A DNA stretch of 32,000 nucleotides. Origin: an uncultured bacterium (GTDB taxonomy: Bacteria > Auribacterota > JACPWU01). The DNA is taken from positions 30,001-62,000 of the forward strand of contig CAZXEQ010000002.1 in NCBI GenBank assembly GCA_964640155.1, written 5' to 3'. Under the pieces are notes generated by a model that saw nothing but the letters and a program-made list of their open reading frames with translations, ran no database searches and had not been told where the DNA came from. Shown in pieces: positions 1-32,000 of this stretch. How positions within the stretch are numbered: the first letter of the stretch is position 1; each line of letters starts with the position of its first letter. A program made the position numbers and the translations under genes.

Positions 1-316
1 CTTCCTTAAGCTGTCTAAAGTCAGAATCAATATACAAAGAATTATGAGGCCGCCCATGAAACCATCTTCCTTTTCCATACTTACCATTGACAAGCGTTGT
101 TCCAGCATTGATCGCTTTCTTACAACTGACTTGATTCACAGGAACAGATTCATCCAAGGACCAATATCCCAAAACTCCACGAGAGATTAAATCCTTTTGA
201 TTTTCTAACTCAATATCACTCAGACGAAGGGCAAGATTTTCTACTAGAAGAATATCCGCTTGATAAAAACAGACGGCCGCAAGAGCAATCACCCCCAATA
301 GTTTGATTCGACTCAA
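1..316 (-). CDS. N-terminal fragment of a membrane-anchored LamG/concanavalin-like domain protein, paralog of the N-terminus of the 961-aa LamG-CotH protein; continues beyond the left edge
   Basis: Absent from the ORF track because it runs off the window. The reverse-complement frame from 316 is open down to position 1: (TTG)L-SRIKLLGVIALAAVCFYQADILLVENLALRLSDIELENQKDLISRGVLGYWSLDESVPVNQVSCKKAINAGTTLVNGKYGKGRWFHGRPHNSLYIDSDFRQLKE. It aligns with residues 1-105 of the protein at 1034..3919 (MKRVWIFAVIILGCIFFYEGDIFLL; GVIAYWTFDG...GATLTNGRFGKARKFYGRPNNTLITGVDF). TTG 316-314 overlaps the TGA 315-313 of the upstream gene (TTGA junction). Confidence 0.6.
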   Translation of the reverse strand, partial: MSRIKLLGVIALAAVCFYQADILLVENLALRLSDIELENQKDLISRGVLGYWSLDESVPVNQVSCKKAINAGTTLVNGKYGKGRWFHGRPHNSLYIDSDFRQLKE

Positions 317-1005
317 CGAATTCCCCCGGGGCGATTAAAAAAGATATGGATAGATTGACTTTCAGATAGAGATTTTATTTCAGACTGAACTTCTTCTACA
401 GGTTTTTTTAAACCCGAAAATGAAAAATGAATCGAGGCTATCGCGTCTCGACTCGACGCACTCTCTAATACATTTCTAGAGGTATGTTCTTTCAGATAAG
501 CGCAAACTTGCTTCAATTTTTCTGCCGCCTTTTCTTGAGTCATTGTCAAAATCAACATCCCATCTCTTCCTCGATGTTTCAGCAATCTTTTTCCTCGCAA
601 AGCAAATAAGGTTACGATCGCAACCAAATACAGCACCATTAATAATTGAAAATTAAAAGTTGCGCAAGTAATTGATGAAGCAATTAAAAGCATGATAAAA
701 CCAACTTCTTCTGGTTCTCGAATAGGAGTTCTAAACCTCACAATAGACAAGGCTCCTAATAAGCCAAGGGACAGAGGCAGCGACATTTGTACCCCCAAAA
801 ATAAGGTTGTAATAGAGATCCCTAGCAATGGGAAGGCACGATGAACTTGACTCCCAGTTCCTCTATTTTCATAAAAATAAGTATAAAGGAGACTTGCGAC
901 CAGGGCCGACACAAGAGACACTACGAGGGCTAGCACAAAACTACTAGGATCTATTCTGTTTGCTGCTTCTCGACTTAATTCTAAAGTTTTAAATACATTA
1001 TTCAT
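313..1005 (-). CDS. DUF4956-family integral membrane protein
   Basis: 230-aa ORF with ATG at 1005, preceded by AAAGGAACAAAGG. The N-terminal half has several hydrophobic helices and the motif LGLLGALSIVRFRTPIREPEEVGFI, which I recognise as the DUF4956 signature. The C-terminal tail is soluble. It sits in the VTC/CotH neighbourhood typical of this family. Confidence 0.8.
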   Translation of the reverse strand: MNNVFKTLELSREAANRIDPSSFVLALVVSLVSALVASLLYTYFYENRGTGSQVHRAFPLLGISITTLFLGVQMSLPLSLGLLGALSIVRFRTPIREPEEVGFIMLLIASSITCATFNFQLLMVLYLVAIVTLFALRGKRLLKHRGRDGMLILTMTQEKAAEKLKQVCAYLKEHTSRNVLESASSRDAIASIHFSFSGLKKPVEEVQSEIKSLSESQSIHIFFNRPGGIR

Positions 1006-1033
1006 ACCTTTGTTCCTTTTTTATTAACATATT

Positions 1034-3919
1034 TCATTGTATCTGAGTTTGTCCAATTTGTGCAAAATACTGATCTAAAAAAACAAGTCTTTTCTTAATC
1101 CATTCTCTCATTTTATTCACAAAATCTTCTCGCGTTTCTGTCGTGGGAGAAGGCCATATTTCAAAATTTCTTTTGACACGATACTTCACCTTTTCATCAA
1201 TTTCATCCATCCTCTTCATTAAGGCGTCTTCAGAAAGAATATCTTTTCTTAACTCCTGCCATCGCTTATATAGATTTTGATTATAACCTGGGAGCACCTT
1301 CATCAATCTATTAAACAAATCATTGGTAACAATCCGGGTTTCCTCTCTCCCAAAACTTTTGTCATAGTCCCATGGCACCAGAAAAAATAAATCCTCAGTC
1401 CCATTGTTCCTCGCAATGAAAAGGTTATGATTGGGACCATCCATTTGATTTACAAAATTAAGCAATATTTGAAAATCCATCACATTATTGATATCCATAA
1501 CTTGATGGACCTTTTTTTTGAATTCCTCGTCCGAAGAGTTTCCTAAAAAAAGAATCAATTCTTCATAAGGAGCCCAATATTCTCCAAACTTTAAATGAGG
1601 TTCCTTTTGCACATAAGCTTCTTTTGCTAGACGGGAAAAACTAGCCGTTCTATTTTCTGCTTTATAAATAACACTGTGCCTGGCATCCCCTTCACGATAA
1701 GGTTCTAATTGCAGTAAATCTATTTCGATATCATTTTCAAACTCGTAAATCCCCTGGAATTCATGATCAATAAAAAGCTCTATAAGAGAGTGATGCGGAG
1801 CATATCGAGGATTCTGAATGGTAGAGAAACTCCTGAAAAGATCATAGGCCATTTGATTTCTCATAAAGGAAAGATCAATGTAACTCCCCATTAAAACCAA
1901 TTCATCCGCATGAGTCCCTAAAAGATCATGAAAGCGTTCCATACAAATTTTGTAAGATTTTTTAGGATAATTAAGCGCCGTATTACCATGGAGTTTGGTT
2001 TTTGCAAAAATTTCTTTAGAAACATCTTCTTGATAGGGTTCAATTATGTTAAAGACACAAGACACATAATCATTGCGATACAATCTGTGTCCACTGTAAG
2101 AAAGGTGAAGTATTGGCATTTTCAAAATCCTGGGCATTACTGTAAAATAAAGGGCCTTGCGCGTCTCATAGGATCCCTTCGTAAAAGTGACCTCTACCTC
2201 TACTTGCTCTGTTTCATCCCCTTTGACCCTATTAACTTTACCCATAGAGTCTATCAGCTCCGGCCTCTTCGATTCCCATCTCAACTTAACACCTTCTATC
2301 TCTTCAATCGAAAAATCTAAGTCTCCCAATATACATTCCCTACCAGGATTATTTTTTAAAACCATCTCTTCTTTAAAAAATGTCTTTACTCTTTCTGCTA
2401 TATTCTTATCTTCTTTTTCATATTCTTCCAAATTCATGGCCTTTAGTTTTTTCCTGTCTTGCTTAATTTGGTATAACACTTCCCGACTTCCCATATGATT
2501 TGTTTGATCTGCCATAAGTAAAGATCCATAACTCTTTGTCAACGCATCATATTCTTTTAACAGGTTTGATTTAGGAACAGGCAATTTCTTTAAAAACTCC
2601 TCTATTTCCCATACATCATGTATCTGTCCTTCGTAGGAAAAAAGTCCTGCATTCTCAAAATAATACAACCCTTGATATTCCCGATTAATCCATACCACTC
2701 CTATCCCTCCCTCTGAGCATGGAAGATGGTATTTTTTCTCCAAACTCTTTCTAAAAATAGCCCTTAATCCTCCATTTTTTGTAGGAGGAACAAATATAAG
2801 TTTTTTTATCCCCTGATATTGGGCTTGCCCTTCCAGTTCAACACTAAAAGTTTTTTTCCCATAGGGACTTAATCGAGAAGCGTCCCCACAAAGTTCCATA
2901 TCTGCTTTTTCTAGCCGTCCTTCTACTTCCATTTTAATTTTTCTCGTTTTGGATATTTTCTTTGGAACAATTCCATGTTCTACACTCAGATAATGGTATT
3001 TATTAAAACTTTTTATGTCCTTCTTGCTTAAATAGAAATGGAATTGGGGCAAGTCTGCTTTTATGATTTTTCCTTGATGGTAATAAGGATTCAACAAGTC
3101 GATACTTTTGATAGCTCTTTGTAATATCTCTAGACCCATCTCCAGCACGTTCTTTTTTATCACGCGCATTCTCTGACTTCTGTATTGATAGGACTCCTTA
3201 GCTTCACTTTCTTTTCTTATTTCTTCTTCTCCCATCACATAACCTCTTACGATGACTTCATCTAAAATATAGTTTAAGAAAAATCCATTTTTCATCTGAC
3301 CTAAAACTATATTTTCAGGACGCTGATAAACAGATTCTAGGGGTATTTTTTGTTTTAAGACCCCATCTTCATAGACTGCTGCTTCCTTTTTTGAGGCGGA
3401 TACTGTACAAACAACATAGACAAATTGATCGTACTTCTGAAATGGATAGGAGAGAATTTTATCTTGCCGGTTTCCAGCTAAAATTTTAAAGGAAAGTTGG
3501 TCCTTCTCTAACCAAATAAACTCTAGCCCTCCTCGATGATTACAAAGAAGGGTTTGTTTTTCCTGAGATCTAGAGAATTTAATCCAGAAAGAGAAACTGT
3601 ATTCTGATTTGAAACTTAAAAAATCAACTCCCGTAATAAGGGTATTGTTAGGTCTGCCATAAAATTTTCTGGCTTTACCAAAACGTCCGTTTGTTAAAGT
3701 GGCTCCACGGTTCAGTCCTTTTATTTGACTTACCTCATCGACAATACCTGCTCCATCAAAAGTCCAATAGGCAATGACACCCTCTTTTTCATAATATTTT
3801 TGCATCCCCCATTGAACATGCAGCATTTGATGATTTAGAATTTTTAGGAGAAAAATATCTCCTTCATAAAAAAAAATGCATCCCAAAATAATGACGGCAA
3901 AAATCCAAACGCGTTTCAA
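1034..3919 (-). CDS. Membrane-anchored LamG-domain / CotH-family (atypical kinase fold) protein
   Basis: 961-aa ORF. The start is TTG (3919-3917), 4 nt after AAGAGGTG. It has an N-terminal signal-anchor (VWIFAVIILGCIFFY). Residues ~50-235 resemble a LamG/concanavalin lectin fold (YWTFDG, LTNGRFGKARKFYG, FSFSFWIKF, LDEVIV). The C-terminal ~350 aa carry CotH hallmarks: LHGNTALNYPKKSYKI, DLSFMRNQMAYDLFR, ELFIDHEFQGIYEFEN, NHNLFIARNN..FFLVPWDYDKSFG. Confidence 0.8.
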   Translation of the reverse strand: MKRVWIFAVIILGCIFFYEGDIFLLKILNHQMLHVQWGMQKYYEKEGVIAYWTFDGAGIVDEVSQIKGLNRGATLTNGRFGKARKFYGRPNNTLITGVDFLSFKSEYSFSFWIKFSRSQEKQTLLCNHRGGLEFIWLEKDQLSFKILAGNRQDKILSYPFQKYDQFVYVVCTVSASKKEAAVYEDGVLKQKIPLESVYQRPENIVLGQMKNGFFLNYILDEVIVRGYVMGEEEIRKESEAKESYQYRSQRMRVIKKNVLEMGLEILQRAIKSIDLLNPYYHQGKIIKADLPQFHFYLSKKDIKSFNKYHYLSVEHGIVPKKISKTRKIKMEVEGRLEKADMELCGDASRLSPYGKKTFSVELEGQAQYQGIKKLIFVPPTKNGGLRAIFRKSLEKKYHLPCSEGGIGVVWINREYQGLYYFENAGLFSYEGQIHDVWEIEEFLKKLPVPKSNLLKEYDALTKSYGSLLMADQTNHMGSREVLYQIKQDRKKLKAMNLEEYEKEDKNIAERVKTFFKEEMVLKNNPGRECILGDLDFSIEEIEGVKLRWESKRPELIDSMGKVNRVKGDETEQVEVEVTFTKGSYETRKALYFTVMPRILKMPILHLSYSGHRLYRNDYVSCVFNIIEPYQEDVSKEIFAKTKLHGNTALNYPKKSYKICMERFHDLLGTHADELVLMGSYIDLSFMRNQMAYDLFRSFSTIQNPRYAPHHSLIELFIDHEFQGIYEFENDIEIDLLQLEPYREGDARHSVIYKAENRTASFSRLAKEAYVQKEPHLKFGEYWAPYEELILFLGNSSDEEFKKKVHQVMDINNVMDFQILLNFVNQMDGPNHNLFIARNNGTEDLFFLVPWDYDKSFGREETRIVTNDLFNRLMKVLPGYNQNLYKRWQELRKDILSEDALMKRMDEIDEKVKYRVKRNFEIWPSPTTETREDFVNKMREWIKKRLVFLDQYFAQIGQTQIQ

Positions 3920-3934
3920 TGCACACCTCTTAAG

Positions 3935-4615
3935 CTAAACTCCATGAACAAATTTTGAAAGACACATACCATATTTAGAAAAACTTTGAGACCGAAACCC
4001 CATCTCATACAAACGGTCTAACCAAGGAACTTCTGTTATCTTCTTTTCTTTAATCTCTAATACAATGGTTTCAATCTCTGGAGCACTGTCACAAGGCAAT
4101 ATTTCTCTGTTCGTCTGTGCAGATCGAATGGACGTATCCAGACTCACACGAGCACCTGAATAAGGGCAAATGAACCTTTCTCTGTCATATACGACTGTTA
4201 GAATTGCAAACAATCCTGCAGGCAGGGCTATCCCCAACTCATGGGCATTCTCATAGATCACTCGTGTCAGAGTCACGTTCTCTAAAGGAACTTGATCAAG
4301 CCAATGTTCTGGGAAAAAAATCTTTTTTCTTAATTTATCCCCTCGAAGACCTTCTTTTGTCTTGATTTCTAGAAACGCGGGAATTTGACCTGTCTCATCC
4401 TTGGAAGTTGGATGATACCAACGTAATCGTACTTTTGTTTTTAAATAATCTCCATTAGCCTTCTCTTGATAGGATGATAACTCAAGCGTGTCATAATAAA
4501 TGCTTGAGATACGTCCTGAAGGAAACTCCAGATCTGGAATGCAAACGTGTTGAAGCCAGCCACGCGCAAATTCAGCGGCTATTTTAGGAGCTGTAAACTT
4601 TCTTTCGTTTCTCAA
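3935..4615 (-). CDS. VTC-domain protein (CYTH / triphosphate-tunnel fold, polyphosphate-polymerase-like)
   Basis: 226-aa ORF with TTG start at 4615-4613. It shows the alternating charged beta-strand motifs typical of triphosphate-tunnel enzymes and bacterial VTC-domain proteins: NERKF, SIYYDT, KVRLRWY, FLEIKTKEG, DRERF, RVSLDT, VLEIKEK. Only 15 nt separate its stop from the CotH start. Confidence 0.8.
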   Translation of the reverse strand: MRNERKFTAPKIAAEFARGWLQHVCIPDLEFPSGRISSIYYDTLELSSYQEKANGDYLKTKVRLRWYHPTSKDETGQIPAFLEIKTKEGLRGDKLRKKIFFPEHWLDQVPLENVTLTRVIYENAHELGIALPAGLFAILTVVYDRERFICPYSGARVSLDTSIRSAQTNREILPCDSAPEIETIVLEIKEKKITEVPWLDRLYEMGFRSQSFSKYGMCLSKFVHGV

Positions 4616-4691
4616 TTGAAAGATAATCCTTTCGATATCTTATTGACAGGCCGTTGTTTAGCTGATAGTCCACCAAAAGTTTCTCTCGACC

Positions 4692-4705
4692 TTGTAGTAC
4701 TACAA
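4692..4705. promoter_or_regulatory. Perfect 14-bp palindrome TTGTAGTACTACAA, candidate operator upstream of the VTC/CotH/DUF4956 module
   Basis: Read directly: positions 4692-4705 are self-complementary at all 7 pairs. A further GTAGT half-site lies at 4710-4714. It sits 77 nt upstream of the TTG start at 4615, inside the longest spacer of the window. With no loop it cannot be a good terminator hairpin. Confidence 0.35.
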
Positions 4706-4864
4706 CGAAGTAGTCCCAATCTTTAGAAACAAATAATAAAAAAGTACAAGTCCATAATGTATCCTATAGATCGTGGCCTTGTTGGTAAAGAAGCAGTCAA
4801 AAATGAAATCAGACTAAACTTTTGGAGTGTATTGTACCTAAGCTGGGGATTTTAACAATCAAAC

Positions 4865-4892
4865 GAATCCCTGATAATTTTATAGGGGATTC
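4865..4892 (-). terminator. Weak hairpin downstream of the SDR gene (possible intrinsic terminator)
   Basis: GAATCCC (4865-4871) pairs with GGGATTC (4886-4892) across a 14-nt loop. On the minus strand the stem is followed by GTTTGATTGTT. It lies 53 nt past the TAG at 4945-4947. The long loop and interrupted U-tract keep confidence low. Confidence 0.2.
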
Positions 4893-4944
4893 ACTTATAG
4901 AGGATAAAAAAAGTCACTCACACGGGAAAATCGCATATTTTGAG

Positions 4945-28297: not shown

Positions 28298-29938
28298 TCA
28301 ACTTTTTTCAAAAAATTTATGAAAACATTCTAAAATGTAAGAAATCTCATTTTCGGAGAGACCAGGATAAACCCCTACCCAAAAAGTATTATTCATAACA
28401 AAATCAGTATTCTCAAGATTTCCATAAATGCGATAGTTTACATTATCAAAGCAAGGCTGTTTAATAAGATTACCTGCAAAAAGCATTCTTGTTGAGATCT
28501 TATTATTTTCTAAATATTGAACAATTTCATTTTTTGTAAAGCCTGCCTCTTGACGCACTGTTAACAAAAATCCAAACCAACTTGGATCAGCTCCTAATTC
28601 TATTTGGGGCAAAATAAAATACTTTTCATATTTTCTTAATCCATCATATAAAAGCTTAAAATTTCTTTTTCGTGAATTAATAAAAGAAGGCAGTTTTTTA
28701 AGTTGTTCAAGTCCGACAGCTGCCTGCATATCTGTCGCTTTCAGATTATAACCTATATGAGAATAAATATATTTGTGATCATACCCCTTCGGAAGCTCTC
28801 CTAATTTCCAACCAAAGCGATTATTACAAGTATTCGCATGTCCCGGTTCACACCAGCAATCACGTCCCCAATCTCGAAATGATTCTATTAATTGCTTTAA
28901 ACGCGTGTCGTTGGTGATAACAGCTCCACCTTCTCCCATCGTAATATGATGCGCAGGGTAAAAACTGAACGTAGCAATATCCCCAAAAGTCCCAGTATAT
29001 TTTCCATTATATTGGGAACCTAAAGCATCACAATTATCTTCGATCACCCATAGCTTATACTTTTGAGCAATAGACATTATTTGGTCTAAATTAAATGGAT
29101 TCCCTAATGTATGTGCTAAAAAAATGGCTTTCGTTTTTCCAGACAAGGCTTTTTCAATTTTGTCTGCTTGTATATTGTAAGTTCCCAGATTTACGTCTAG
29201 AAAAACAGGCACAAGACTATTTTGAAGAATGGGACTCACTGTTGCAGGAAAAGCACACGCAACTGCAATCACTTCATCCCCAGGCTTCAGCCTTCTTTCT
29301 CCTAGCTTGGGAGATGTTAAAGCTGACAAGGCCAAAAGATTTGCTGATGATCCAGAATTGGTTAAAAGACAGTGGCGAATTCCTAAGAATTTAGCAAATG
29401 TTTTTTCAAATTCTTTGGCAAACCGCCCGGTCGTTAACCAAAAGTCAAACGCTGTATCTACAAGCCTTTTCATTTCTTCTGCATCATACACACGCCCAGA
29501 ACAAGGCAAAACTGTTTTCCCCAGAACAATTTCTTTGCTCTTGTGATGAACAATAGCATGATGTTTCTCAACAATACGAAAAGCCATTTTTCTTAGGATT
29601 TCATCTATCTTAGGAATATCCAATCGACCTCGTCTTTGAAGAGGAAGGTCTGAGTGTAAAATATCGATTTTATCTTTTACGATAAGACATTCATCTAAAA
29701 GATTTCCTTCAGATAAATCTTCTTTCTTTATCTTAATTCCTTCTTGTTCAGAGGATTGATATGAGTCTATTCTTAAAATTTGAAGAGCGTCTTCATCCAC
29801 CTCATAGACCATTCCTAATCTGTTCATCTTAAGGTCGATTGAAGAAGGAAAAGAATAGGCTACAACATCTCCTATTTGAAGATCGATAAATGAACTCACA
29901 GTTTTCTCTTTATTTTTTGAAACAAGATTCTTGCTCAT
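28298..29938 (-). CDS. rfbH: CDP-6-deoxy-D-xylo-4-hexulose 3-dehydrase (E1; RfbH/DdhC/AscC type) with a ~105-aa N-terminal extension
   Basis: 546 aa. Residues ~111-546 are collinear with RfbH as I remember it: [77 protein letters not shown]. The PLP lysine is replaced by His ([14 protein letters not shown]). Cys303, 361, 363 and 371 give exactly C-X57-C-X1-C-X7-C, the E1 [2Fe-2S] motif. The ATG at 29938 overlaps rfbG by 29 nt. Confidence 0.85.
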
Positions 29939-31031
29939 TATTTTTTAGACCATATTTTTTAAAATCATGGATAAGAAGTTGAGATAAATCTGCAGAATTT
30001 GCCCCTTCATAAAAAGCTTTATACCAGGAAATCGTTTTTTTAATTGAATCTGTAAAATTATACTGAGATTTCCAATGAAGAACTTTTTGAGACTTCGTTG
30101 TATCAAGTTTTAATAAATGCGCTTCGTGGGGATGTTTAACTCCATCTATTTTATACTTTCCACTCCCCCAAGTTTGAATGGCTAATTTCACTAATTCCTC
30201 CACTGAGGCATGACTCTGACTTCCATCATTTGGACCAAAGTTCCATGCATCCCCATATTGAAGGCCATCTTGATACATCAAAGAACCCAACAAGAGATAT
30301 CCTCCCAAAGGGTCCATGACATATTGCCAAGGACGAATGGCTGAAGGATGGCGAATCACAAGGGTTTCGTTCTTTGACAAGGCTCTCACACAATCAGGGA
30401 TAATTCTATCTTTACTCCAGTCCCCTCCTCCAATAATATTGCCCGAACGAACAGAAGCTAAGACAACGTCGTGCTTCTTACGATAATCTTCCGGATTAAA
30501 AAAAGAGCTGCGATAAGCACTTGTTACAATTTCTGCACATCCCTTACTAGAACTGTAAGGATCATACCCTCCCATGGGGTCTGTCTCTTTATATCCTTGA
30601 AGCCATTCTTTATTTTCATAACATTTGTCACTTGTTACAATACAACAAACTTTCACACAAGGCGTTTTCCTAACGGCTTCTAAAACATTGACTGTTCCCA
30701 TCACATTTGTTTCATAGGTCATTTTAGGATGATCATAGGAAAAACGAACCAAAGATTGGGCAGCTAAATGAAAAACAAATTCTGGCTGAAATTCATTAAA
30801 GATTTTTATCAATCGTTCTTCGTCTCGAATATCAGCTTCTTCGTGGCGTATCCTGTTCTTAAGATCAATCGCCTGAAATAAATTTGGATCTGTTGATGGC
30901 CCCAAAGCATATCCTAAAACTTGTGCCCCTAATTCACTCAACCATAAGGAAAGCCAACTTCCCTTAAAACCCGTATGTCCAGTAACTAAAACTTTCTTAT
31001 TCTTATAAATAGACCCCAAGGACTCACCCAT
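29910..31031 (-). CDS. rfbG: CDP-glucose 4,6-dehydratase
   Basis: 373 aa. The N-terminus [32 protein letters not shown] is characteristic of RfbG/DdhB. The catalytic YxxxK is present (YSSSKGCAE). The ATG at 31031 overlaps the upstream stop by 8 nt. Confidence 0.9.
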
Positions 31032-31482
31032 GTTTTAAACTCCAATCATACGGAATCTCTTTGGTGAAAGGATCCTTCCTTGTAATTTCATGAGGATCAT
31101 GCGGAATAGTCGAACAATTAGCAACAATAGCTGGATTTACTCCAATATTTTTAAAACCATTCCAAATTCCAGGAGGGATTTTAACCAGGCTATAATTCTC
31201 CTCACCAATAAAAAGTTCTATAAGATTTCCTTGAGTCTTAGAATCCTTTCTATCATCGTAGAGCGCTAATTTTATCATTCCTTGAACCACTGCATAATTG
31301 AGAGTCATTTTCTGATGCAAATGCCATCCTTTGATCACTTCAGGATAAGCCACTGAGAAATAAATCTCTCCAAATTTCTCAAAGAGAGAATCATCGCATC
31401 TGAGCATATGATAGATACTGCCCCTCTCATCCGGAATTTTTCTCAAAGGTTTTACCACAACCCCTTCAATGCTATTGTTCAC
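31024..31482 (-). CDS. RmlC-like cupin, short sugar-nucleotide 3,5- (or 5-) epimerase family
   Basis: 152 aa with GTG start 31482-31480. Motifs: PLRKIPDERGS, IKGWHLHQKMT, KIPPGIWNGFKNIG. These match the small dTDP-4-dehydrorhamnose-3,5-epimerase-related cupins. It overlaps the upstream gene by 11 nt. Confidence 0.75.
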   Translation of the reverse strand: MNNSIEGVVVKPLRKIPDERGSIYHMLRCDDSLFEKFGEIYFSVAYPEVIKGWHLHQKMTLNYAVVQGMIKLALYDDRKDSKTQGNLIELFIGEENYSLVKIPPGIWNGFKNIGVNPAIVANCSTIPHDPHEITRKDPFTKEIPYDWSLKHG

Positions 31483-32000
31483 ATTTCCCTCCTGCCTTTG
31501 CTAAATATTCTTTGAACCATGTAATGGTAAGATTCAATCCATTTTCTAGAATTTTAACTTCTGGTTCCCATCCTAAAACCTTTTTGGTTTTACTGATATC
31601 TGCACAAGCAAAACCAACTTCATTCTTTCTACTGGAAATAGCACCCCACAAAGGATTCAATTTACTATCCAAAATTTCTTTTATTCTCTCCACTACTTTT
31701 CTAATAGTAACCACCTGTCCTGTGCCTATGTTAAAAATCTCATGACCATTTAATATAGGAGACAAAGATAAAGCTTTCATATAAGCATTAACAATATCTC
31801 CAACATAAACAAAATCCCATTCTTGAGTGCCTAATGTCATTTTGGGTGCTTTTTCATCTAAAAAAGACTGAATAACATATGGAATCAGTCGTCTCTTATG
31901 ATCCTCAGGTCCATAAGGAGGGAAAAGGCGAAACGTCATGATATTCAACCCATACTTCTGAGCATAAAAACTGCAAGCCTCCTCAGCACTGCATTTACTG
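31472..32000 (-). CDS. NAD-dependent epimerase/reductase (extended SDR), C-terminal part; the start lies beyond the right edge
   Basis: The track ORF begins at an internal TTG (31948), but the frame stays open to position 32000: ...SKCSAEEACSFYAQKYGLNIMTFRLFPPYGP. That is the SK of the SDR YxxxK motif followed by the canonical R.F..YGP segment. The C-terminus (NIGTG..VTI, KTKKVLGWEP) is typical of NDP-sugar epimerases/reductases. Confidence 0.75.
   Translation of the reverse strand, partial: SKCSAEEACSFYAQKYGLNIMTFRLFPPYGPEDHKRRLIPYVIQSFLDEKAPKMTLGTQEWDFVYVGDIVNAYMKALSLSPILNGHEIFNIGTGQVVTIRKVVERIKEILDSKLNPLWGAISSRKNEVGFACADISKTKKVLGWEPEVKILENGLNLTITWFKEYLAKAGGKCEQ

Follow-up and report, generated by a model that had tools for sequence, protein, structure and literature searches.

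At one end of a 32,000-nucleotide (nt) stretch of DNA from the candidate phylum Auribacterota (contig CAZXEQ010000002.1, positions 30,001-62,000; hereafter the window), positions 1-4615 carry genes for a VTC-family triphosphate-tunnel protein, a small DUF4956 membrane protein and two CotH proteins, CotH_A and CotH_B. We interpret these four genes as one envelope module of three conserved parts, and VTC, DUF4956 and CotH very probably form a single pathway or complex. As a more speculative proposal, which we regard as doubtful, the module would be a bacterial VTC-like machine for the export of polyphosphate (polyP), and CotH would use polyP, not ATP, to phosphorylate or polyphosphorylate glycans or proteins at the cell surface.

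Conservation of the trio carries the first of these conclusions. A single scan of GTDB species representatives with a VTC alignment gave 79 loci. Because these loci were picked by similarity to the VTC protein of the window, the tallies describe this VTC subfamily and not all VTC or CotH genes. Locus genes were labeled with profiles built iteratively from the loci, and a sample of the proteins was checked against Pfam. About a dozen phyla are represented, with loci from Auribacterota, Verrucomicrobiota/Kiritimatiellia/Lentisphaerae, Rokubacteria, Acidobacteriota (Vicinamibacterales), Spirochaetota/Leptospirales, Desulfobacterota, Planctomycetota, Bifidobacteriaceae, Eisenbacteria, Binatia, Moduliflexus and others. 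At 73 of 78 evaluable loci, the gene immediately downstream of VTC is DUF4956; at least some of the misses stem from over-extended open reading frame (ORF) calls, and locus L030 has no DUF4956 match at all. A CotH gene is found within 2.5 kb downstream at 62 of 66 evaluable loci. An earlier reading of this DNA, made from the letters alone (the sequence-only reading), had stated that the trio recurs in genomes, and these counts bear that out over many phyla.

The canonical order across the loci is VTC-DUF4956-CotH, with frequent 4-nt overlaps between start and stop codons of the trio genes. Candidatus Auribacterota metagenome-assembled genomes are the nearest (in JAYRIK010000103, VTC is 80-81% and CotH 71% identical). 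Locus L003 has the window's order, VTC-CotH-DUF4956, without CotH_B, and locus L004 has VTC-DUF4956-CotH with 4-nt overlaps at both junctions. Since the set is kept even though its order is shuffled between the window and L003 on the one hand and L004 on the other, the three genes almost certainly act together. Two arrangements were seen in particular lineages. Locus L013 (Verrucomicrobia; L013:1-14418) holds two complete, divergently oriented VTC-DUF4956-CotH(long) sets with asparagine synthase, hexapeptide transferase and epimerase genes between them. In Spirochaete/Leptospirales loci L034, L038, L039 and L047 (e.g. L047:3064-9669), the genes run co-directionally as LPG_synthase_TM-GT2-VTC-DUF4956-CotH-MacB-type permease, with LPG_synthase_TM missing from L034, and the trio may belong to a larger conserved operon in these lineages.

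In the window, all module genes are on the minus strand and are transcribed in the order VTC, CotH_A, DUF4956, CotH_B. The features are as follows.

3935-4615, minus strand: VTC gene, 226 amino acids (aa); Pfam PF09359 VTC, E 8e-23
1034-3919, minus strand: CotH_A (gene 2), 961 aa; Pfam Laminin_G_3, aBig_2 and CotH
313-1005, minus strand: DUF4956 gene, 230 aa; Pfam PF16316, E 1e-13
1-316, minus strand: 5' end of CotH_B (gene 4), 105 codons; TTG start at 316, coding sequence exits the window
4616-4944, minus strand: spacer 5' of VTC, 329 nt, the longest intergenic gap of the window; the next are 206 and 190 nt

VTC and CotH_A are separated by 15 nt and CotH_A and DUF4956 by 28 nt, and the DUF4956 stop codon overlaps the CotH_B start in a TTGA. 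These coordinates agree with the sequence-only reading, which had described four co-directional genes with these junctions downstream of the window's longest spacer. The families that it had named were also recovered by a profile hidden Markov model (HMM) check of all four proteins, in which the VTC, CotH, DUF4956 and Laminin_G_3 matches exceed the Pfam gathering scores. No NCBIfam model matches the VTC, CotH_A or DUF4956 protein.

VTC is a predicted stand-alone, soluble cytoplasmic triphosphate-tunnel enzyme of the Vtc4 type. The protein scores 81.6 bits against PF09359 (cut-off 23), and a profile built from 34 homologs matches the Vtc4 structures 3g3q/8i6v at E 3e-9 and inactive Vtc2 at 4e-5. 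In the profile alignment, VTC residues R63, R65, K85, Y143, R145, E187, S213 and K214 correspond to Vtc4 R264, R266, K281, Y359, R361, E426, S457 and K458, respectively, such that eight of the nine Vtc4 residues needed for polyP synthesis align and are present. The cryo-EM study of the yeast VTC complex found that these eight Vtc4 residues bind triphosphate and Mn2+ and that mutating each of them lowers polyP. The same study identified K458 as the one residue that is replaced in inactive Vtc2/3, so that it separates active Vtc4 from them. The 'fSKY' motif of VTC aligns with 'fSKF' of Vtc4, which places K214 on K458. The seven aligned tunnel/Mn residues and K214 are invariant among the 34 bacterial homologs, except for Y143 (at least 90% conserved). 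Hydropathy analysis detected a single weak peak within the VTC domain (residues 124-142, Kyte-Doolittle value 1.73), which we read as a buried strand of the tunnel fold and not as a membrane helix. The Pfam match and the lone weak peak fit the soluble tunnel protein of the sequence-only reading, and its proposed check of the tunnel residues found the catalytic set, the K458 equivalent included, to be present.

The DUF4956 protein matches PF16316 with 51.4 bits (cut-off 30.6), and its hydropathy profile has four transmembrane segments, in agreement with its earlier description as a small membrane protein. An AlphaFold2 model (predicted local distance difference test, pLDDT, 79) contains helices at residues 20-45, 54-74, 98-115 and 119-143, followed by a C-terminal beta-alpha-beta-beta-alpha-beta domain (149-223) that is ACT-like. 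DUF4956 is the most conserved member of the trio, with 50-57% identity between phyla and a near-invariant core of 60 residues. In a 55-sequence alignment, the block FYE.RGTGSQ..R.FPLL…Q.S.PLSLGLLGALS..RFRTP..EPEE.GF is invariant or nearly so, and the membrane core is far more conserved than the ACT-like domain. The basic residues R56, R90, R92 and K/R96 are among the invariant positions. A strongly basic stretch after the fourth helix indicates that the ACT-like domain is cytoplasmic; with four helices and a cytoplasmic C-terminus, the invariant RFRTP..EPEE loop would lie on the same side as VTC. We infer from this pattern of conservation that DUF4956 is better suited to a catalytic or conducting role than to that of a passive anchor.

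The DUF4956 family comprises 2,718 clusters at 50% identity (E up to 1e-3), and almost all members are stand-alone proteins of about 230 aa. 'Rosetta stone' fusions of VTC with DUF4956 were considered and discarded. The only long DUF4956 matches are P0384 (663 aa; partial DUF4956 with BPD_transp_1 and PMT/PMT_2) and P0376 (283 aa; partial DUF4956 with BPD_transp_1), which are probably assembly or frameshift chimeras and not true fusions. Separately, nine Desulfocapsaceae/Desulfofustis loci (L045, L052, L055, L059, L066, L068, L071, L074 and L081; e.g. L066:11410-12255) have an ORF of about 280 aa between DUF4956 and CotH. This ORF is matched by the locus-derived DUF4956 profile and has no Pfam match at E up to 1e-4; it may encode a divergent second DUF4956-like subunit.

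CotH_A has Laminin_G_3 (residues 104-234), aBig_2 (531-595) and CotH (643-948, E 1.8e-48) domains by Pfam. Its CotH domain (PF08757) scores 166 bits against a cut-off of 23.8 and its Laminin_G_3 domain 37 bits against 27.6; the Laminin_G_3 score of CotH_B is 43.5 bits. The CotH_A reading frame starts at a TTG codon at 3919, preceded by the strong Shine-Dalgarno sequence AAGAGGTG. A single hydropathy peak covers residues 6-24; K2/R3 precede the peak and acidic residues follow, and CotH_B likewise has one N-terminal hydrophobic helix with K/R before and acidic residues after. This charge distribution indicates that both proteins carry an N-in/C-out signal anchor or a signal peptide, leaving their bulk outside. 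Gene 2 is thus the signal-anchored LamG-CotH fusion of the sequence-only reading, with an aBig_2 domain in addition. Across the loci, an N-terminal hydrophobic segment is present in 57 of 69 CotH proteins, compared to 1 of 78 VTC proteins, and hydropathy therefore supports the predicted topology of a cytoplasmic VTC, a membrane-embedded DUF4956 and an exported CotH. The NCBI record of CotH_A (P0001, 930 aa) begins 31 codons past TTG 3919 and omits the signal anchor (window positions 3827-3919). This database start is probably wrong, because the strong Shine-Dalgarno sequence stands at TTG 3919 and the N-terminal helix is kept in the paralog and orthologs. On the opposite (plus) strand, 1928-2498 holds a 130-aa and a 103-aa ORF antisense to CotH_A; both are low-complexity shadow ORFs with no signs of being genes.

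The kinase-like domain retains its catalytic motifs. In a phmmer search, CotH_A residues 649-944 align to Bacillus cereus CotH (5jd9) at E 4e-8, and the CotH_A motifs 'MDGPNHN' and 'PWDYD' fall on the catalytic D228 and the metal-binding D251 of B. subtilis CotH. Mutation of either D228 or D251 inactivates the B. subtilis kinase (PMC7821199). The motifs are also kept in CotH_B and the four other long homologs (P0002-P0006, of which P0003 is CotH_B, with D..HN and WDYD). By an alignment-based count, all 62 CotH proteins of the trio loci have both WDxD aspartates, and 56 of the 62 have the upstream aspartate. The catalytic-residue check called for in the sequence-only reading therefore found equivalents of both aspartates.

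The AlphaFold2 model of CotH_A was computed from a 6-sequence alignment and has a mean pLDDT of 58.6, with values below 50 in the middle region. Within this low-confidence model, the C-terminal domain matches 5jd9 by Foldseek at E 1e-9 with a template modelling score (TM-score) of 0.72 on the target. The LamG region (pLDDT 70-90) matches the jelly-rolls of clostridial neurotoxin Hc. Residues ~355-425 align with the CotH N-lobe by hhalign (E 1.6e-4, at a probability of only 51%), and the order of secondary-structure elements in the low-confidence middle region of the model matches that of the N-lobe. This hhalign match and the model suggest that the poorly modelled middle region (245-530) contains a remnant of a duplicated CotH N-lobe at ~355-425.

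CotH_B can be followed beyond the window edge. Over 1.1 kb, the Logan metagenome contig L001 matches the window at 100% identity, and it extends gene 4 to at least 831 aa, with Pfam matches to Laminin_G_3, aBig_2 and CotH and 54% identity to CotH_A. The full protein is P0003 (959 aa), which is encoded on the same 502-kb NCBI contig as the window's own proteins. Gene 4 had been described as a LamG paralog of gene 2; the paralogy stands, and the protein has the full LamG-aBig_2-CotH architecture, not just LamG. Directly after DUF4956 comes CotH_B, in the canonical CotH position, and the insertion between VTC and DUF4956 is CotH_A. Pairwise sequence identities indicate that the two arose by a duplication within the lineage, before the split between the organisms of the window and of L003.

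CotH occurs in several forms at the trio loci: short forms of ~500-570 aa, which are the more common, long LamG-aBig_2 forms of ~950-1,040 aa in PVC-like phyla (relatives of Planctomycetota, Verrucomicrobiota and Chlamydiota) and Auribacterota, and occasional fusions. A search with the 961-aa protein gave at least six proteins, and we considered whether the long form is a rare architecture; Pfam scans of the locus proteins speak against this, since LamG-aBig_2-CotH is standard in Verrucomicrobiota, Kiritimatiellia, Lentisphaerae and Auribacterota. LamG was absent from the three short or intermediate trio CotH proteins that were scanned against Pfam. The LamG lectin fold that was suggested to target the enzyme is present in CotH_A and CotH_B as Laminin_G_3, but the domain is lineage-specific and most trio CotH proteins are short. 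At L044:3314-5530 (Vicinamibacterales), the CotH of the trio carries a fused FGE-sulfatase (formylglycine-generating enzyme-like) domain at its C-terminus (E 2e-47). The CotH at L054:6674-8893 has the same 740-aa length and falls in the same cluster as the L044 protein; the Pfam scan covered the L044 protein.

The module adjoins a co-directional glycan cluster of ~27 kb, which lies upstream on the minus strand (4945-31948). This cluster contains epimerases/dehydratases, two DegT aminotransferases, three methyltransferases, a DAO/DAO_C FAD oxidoreductase, one GT4 and two GT2 of the polyprenol-phosphate-sugar-synthase type. It also encodes five large polytopic membrane proteins (1008, 667, 556, 683 and 1390 aa; 6-11 hydrophobic peaks). 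None of the five matches a Pfam family above threshold, and two of them have sub-threshold matches to PMT_2 (GT-C), at E 0.008 and 0.002. One of the DegT aminotransferases (28298-29938) has a 150-aa N-terminal extension. Near the far edge of the window, two short ORFs overlap on the minus strand (31024-31482 and 31472-31948). The 158-aa ORF of this pair matches only the C-terminal half of the NAD-dependent epimerase/dehydratase profile (162-240 of 240), which suggests a truncated or frameshifted gene, or one whose start is lost near the window edge.

The 329-nt spacer between this cluster and the module probably holds the module's own promoter together with the terminator of the upstream epimerase gene. 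It contains two sigma-70-like matches on the minus strand (4877-4849 and 4858-4831), a count no higher than chance, and a hairpin, GAAUCCC…GGGAUUC, ~55 nt past the epimerase stop codon. An Rfam search of the spacer gave no family match, and its folding is not unusual (z = 0.21).

Glycan-type genes also accompany the trio in other genomes. At least one is found within ~10 kb at 32 of 51 evaluable loci, and 23 of the 51 have a GT2, often directly upstream and co-directional. LPG_synthase_TM is near the trio at about 18 loci. Other recurrent neighbours are epimerases, GT4, hexapeptide acyltransferases and asparagine synthase, with MacB/ABC genes downstream in spirochaetes. In both L003 and L004, a gene for a DUF2079 polytopic membrane protein is directly upstream. 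The sequence-only reading had pointed to GT-C glycan clusters in particular. The DUF2079 genes of L003 and L004 and the window's sub-threshold PMT_2 matches are in keeping with that, but the commonest neighbours are GT2 and LPG_synthase_TM. Thus, the link of the trio to envelope glycoconjugate synthesis is frequent, not universal, and not specifically GT-C.

How the three parts might work together can be modeled on the yeast VTC complex. The yeast cryo-EM study found that synthesis is coupled to membrane transit, with the Vtc4 tunnel feeding a pore formed by the transmembrane helices of Vtc1/3/4, and it is by analogy with this complex that we propose polyP extrusion by VTC on DUF4956. VTC would dock on a DUF4956 oligomer at the inner face of the membrane and polymerise polyP from ATP, and the growing chain would be threaded outward through DUF4956. 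Outside, where ATP is lacking, CotH would use the exported polyP as phosphoryl donor, or would transfer polyP itself, onto a surface glycan, glycolipid or protein. In the lineage of the window, the LamG domain may tether the kinase to the glycan that the neighbouring cluster produces. This full model, in which polyP is made inside, passed through DUF4956 and used by CotH, is inferred throughout, and we regard it as plausible, if short of probable.

Several observations weigh against it. PolyP synthesis is not known to us from any bacterial VTC-domain protein, and CotH is known to us only as an ATP-dependent Ser/Thr kinase, such that the use of polyP as donor would be unprecedented. The 226-aa VTC has neither an SPX domain nor a fused C-terminal transmembrane domain by Pfam and hydropathy. 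The N-terminus that would carry the counterpart of Vtc4 K200, in the first tunnel strand, falls outside the HMM alignments; judged from sequence, this counterpart is likely to be the 'ERKF' motif (E4, K6), which is invariant in the 34 homologs. The pore role of DUF4956 is itself a hypothesis. Its membrane part gave no relative among solved structures by sequence or fold search, and no similarity of DUF4956 to the Vtc1-type transmembrane domain was detectable. Finally, deletion of the VTC gene SIR_1593 in Streptococcus intermedius had no aggregation phenotype (PMC12345266). A strictly linear pathway would not be expected to lack a VTC phenotype where CotH and DUF4956 mutants have one.

The module of S. 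intermedius has been studied by deletion. In that species, SIR_1594 is a secreted CotH-FN3 protein, SIR_1593 is VTC-like with its catalytic residues, and SIR_1592 has four transmembrane helices and an ACT domain (mBio 2025, PMC12345266). Deletion of SIR_1592 or SIR_1594 alters Pel levels and aggregation; the SIR_1592 (DUF4956 homolog) mutant has more Pel and the SIR_1594 (CotH) mutant less. The authors leave the mechanism open, and they did not find the synteny outside pel loci. Earlier, Whitfield et al. 2020 (bioRxiv 10.1101/768473) had noted that, in streptococci, clostridia and bifidobacteria, pelDEADAFG is directly joined by accessory genes: cotH, a 'poly-phosphate polymerase', DUF4956 and DUF4832. 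The occurrence of the trio with Gram-positive pel operons and the two knockout effects lend the module independent support. In Clostridium perfringens, NELoc-2 contains VTC-domain genes, each followed by a gene for a ~225-aa predicted cytoplasmic-membrane protein annotated as 'tubulin/FtsZ', together with a CotH gene. Our search of the literature on DUF4956, bacterial VTC, and CotH with polyphosphate found no functional study. The statement in the sequence-only reading that the trio has no demonstrated function therefore holds, with the addition that its members are known as accessory pel genes with modest knockout phenotypes.

The S. intermedius results bear on the main alternative, a regulatory one, which we consider unlikely. 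The polyP or oligophosphate made by VTC would stay in the cytoplasm, and DUF4956 would be a sensor or anchor whose ACT-like domain binds a ligand and tunes the synthesis or secretion of an envelope polymer. CotH would use ATP like any ordinary kinase and, once released, would act on proteins of the matrix or surface with ATP from lysis or leakage, and the genes would travel together since all of them regulate the same exopolymer. The missing VTC phenotype fits this better than a conduit, the opposite Pel phenotypes of the other two mutants are in line with it, and the S. intermedius authors favour cytoplasmic polyP (PMC12345266). The ACT-like fold is moreover typical of ligand-binding regulatory domains, and the CotH proteins that have been characterised use ATP. 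However, regulation leaves an exported kinase without an obvious supply of ATP. The near-invariant and often translationally coupled gene order across about a dozen phyla points instead to a physical complex, and a membrane core more conserved than the ACT-like domain would be unusual for a mere anchor. A related possibility keeps DUF4956 in the cytoplasmic economy, as an MgtC-like virulence or phosphate-homeostasis factor that modulates ATP synthase or PhoR in the manner of Salmonella MgtC and adjusts phosphate and ATP pools together with VTC, with CotH acting separately. This interpretation, given in the S. intermedius paper (PMC12345266), draws on an apparently similar layout, with an N-terminal helical membrane domain and an ACT-like domain at the C-terminus. 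Foldseek matches for DUF4956 are confined to this C-terminal domain and point to ACT domains and to the MgtC C-domains 2lqj and 7qa5 (E ~3e-3). The TM-score on these MgtC targets is ~0.5, but unrelated enzymes have ACT domains that score just as well and the fold is very common. Moreover, hhalign against the E. coli MgtC-family protein YhiD gives a probability of 0.4% with the membrane domain unaligned, and Pfam gives DUF4956 no MgtC match even at E up to 10. Sequence and profile comparison thus argues against the membership of DUF4956 in the MgtC/SapB family that has been suggested in the literature. With an obligatory CotH partner also left unexplained, we assign this possibility only a slight probability.

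Another way to read the tunnel enzyme is as a hydrolase. VTC would cleave triphosphate, polyP or a nucleotide, and the cleavage or the phosphate set free by it would drive or gate transport by DUF4956 of, for example, phosphate, a metal-phosphate complex or a lipid-linked sugar, and CotH would act on the transported substrate. The triphosphate-tunnel superfamily does include triphosphatases and cyclases with the same basic tunnel residues, and GT2 of the polyprenol-phosphate type and the flippase-like LPG_synthase_TM recur beside the trio. Nevertheless, we judge a hydrolase-powered transporter to be improbable. The protein belongs to the VTC Pfam family and not to CYTH proper, it keeps the Vtc4-specific lysine K458 along with the whole Vtc4 residue set, and we know of no transporter that is energised by a tunnel enzyme. 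Chance adjacency of four unrelated neighbours, or an annotation artefact, can practically be set aside, since 62-73 of the 66-78 evaluable loci, spread over many phyla, keep the families contiguous and the set survives shuffling of its gene order.

We know of no ATP supply for kinases beyond the bacterial cytoplasmic membrane, and of no bacterial polyP synthase besides PPK1 and PPK2. Both gaps would be touched by a VTC-type polymerase that works with a membrane partner and an exported CotH. If the export of polyP by VTC and DUF4956 and its use by CotH prove correct, polyP as donor would be a previously unrecognised energy supply for chemistry outside the bacterial cell, and polyP export would extend to a dozen phyla or more, gut Bifidobacteria as well as pathogenic streptococci and clostridia among them. 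Should the mechanism instead be regulatory, the trio would be an ordinary conserved operon. The module is in any case common, given the size of the DUF4956 family and the spread of the trio over about a dozen phyla, and it sits beside biofilm and virulence loci such as Gram-positive pel operons and C. perfringens NELoc-2. The catalytic residues, the predicted topology and the invariant DUF4956 motif provide concrete targets for experiments.

Each part of the module can be set against a known system. DUF4956 may share with MgtC/SapB proteins the layout of membrane helices plus a C-terminal ACT-like domain, but it shows no detectable sequence relationship to them in either the YhiD or the Pfam comparison. 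CotH_A shares the CotH fold and the D228/D251 equivalents with Bacillus CotH (5jd9/5jda). In contrast to the Bacillus protein, which is assembled in the mother cell, CotH_A is predicted to be exported via a signal anchor, and it has three times the length and additional LamG, aBig_2 and putative N-lobe-like parts. No sporulation genes were seen in the window, and no substrates of the CotB/CotG type are evident. Fam20-type kinases of the animal secretory pathway are atypical kinases that act outside the cytosol on secreted proteins or on glycans, and Fam20B is a xylose kinase; their resemblance to CotH is a functional analogy only. Import of ATP into the Golgi supplies the Fam20 enzymes; to our knowledge, the bacterial periplasm has no such supply.

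The yeast VTC complex (Vtc4/Vtc3/Vtc1) has in common with the module a Vtc4-type tunnel with the same triphosphate- and Mn-binding residues, K458 included, and an obligatory membrane partner, and it is a precedent for the coupling of polymer synthesis to membrane transit. The bacterial protein differs in consisting of the tunnel only, without SPX or the fused three-helix transmembrane domain. DUF4956 is unrelated in sequence to Vtc1 and has an ACT-like domain, the bacterial system lacks inositol-pyrophosphate regulation, and beyond the membrane lies the periplasm or cell surface, not a vacuole.

The accessory module of pel loci is the closest relative. In both settings, cotH, a VTC-type polymerase and DUF4956 are contiguous and adjoin an exopolysaccharide or glycan locus. 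Both encode a predicted secreted CotH, a cytoplasmic VTC with its catalytic residues and a DUF4956 protein with four helices and an ACT-like domain. The Pfam matches of the window genes (27 kb upstream) include neither pel genes nor DUF4832, and the genes listed for L003 and L004 include neither. In the window, CotH is the long LamG-aBig_2 form instead of CotH-FN3 and is duplicated, with one copy between VTC and DUF4956, and the host belongs to a Gram-negative-type candidate phylum, Auribacterota. With GT2, LPG_synthase_TM, GT4 and epimerase genes as its recurrent neighbours in many phyla, the trio occurs beyond pel loci, which differs from the impression given in print, although the 79 loci were not scanned specifically for pel. 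Together, these comparisons show that the trio itself was already recognised. New here are a setting without pel genes in the 27 kb upstream and a Gram-negative-type host, the long LamG form of CotH and its duplication, and the phylogenetic breadth and near-obligate linkage of the three genes.

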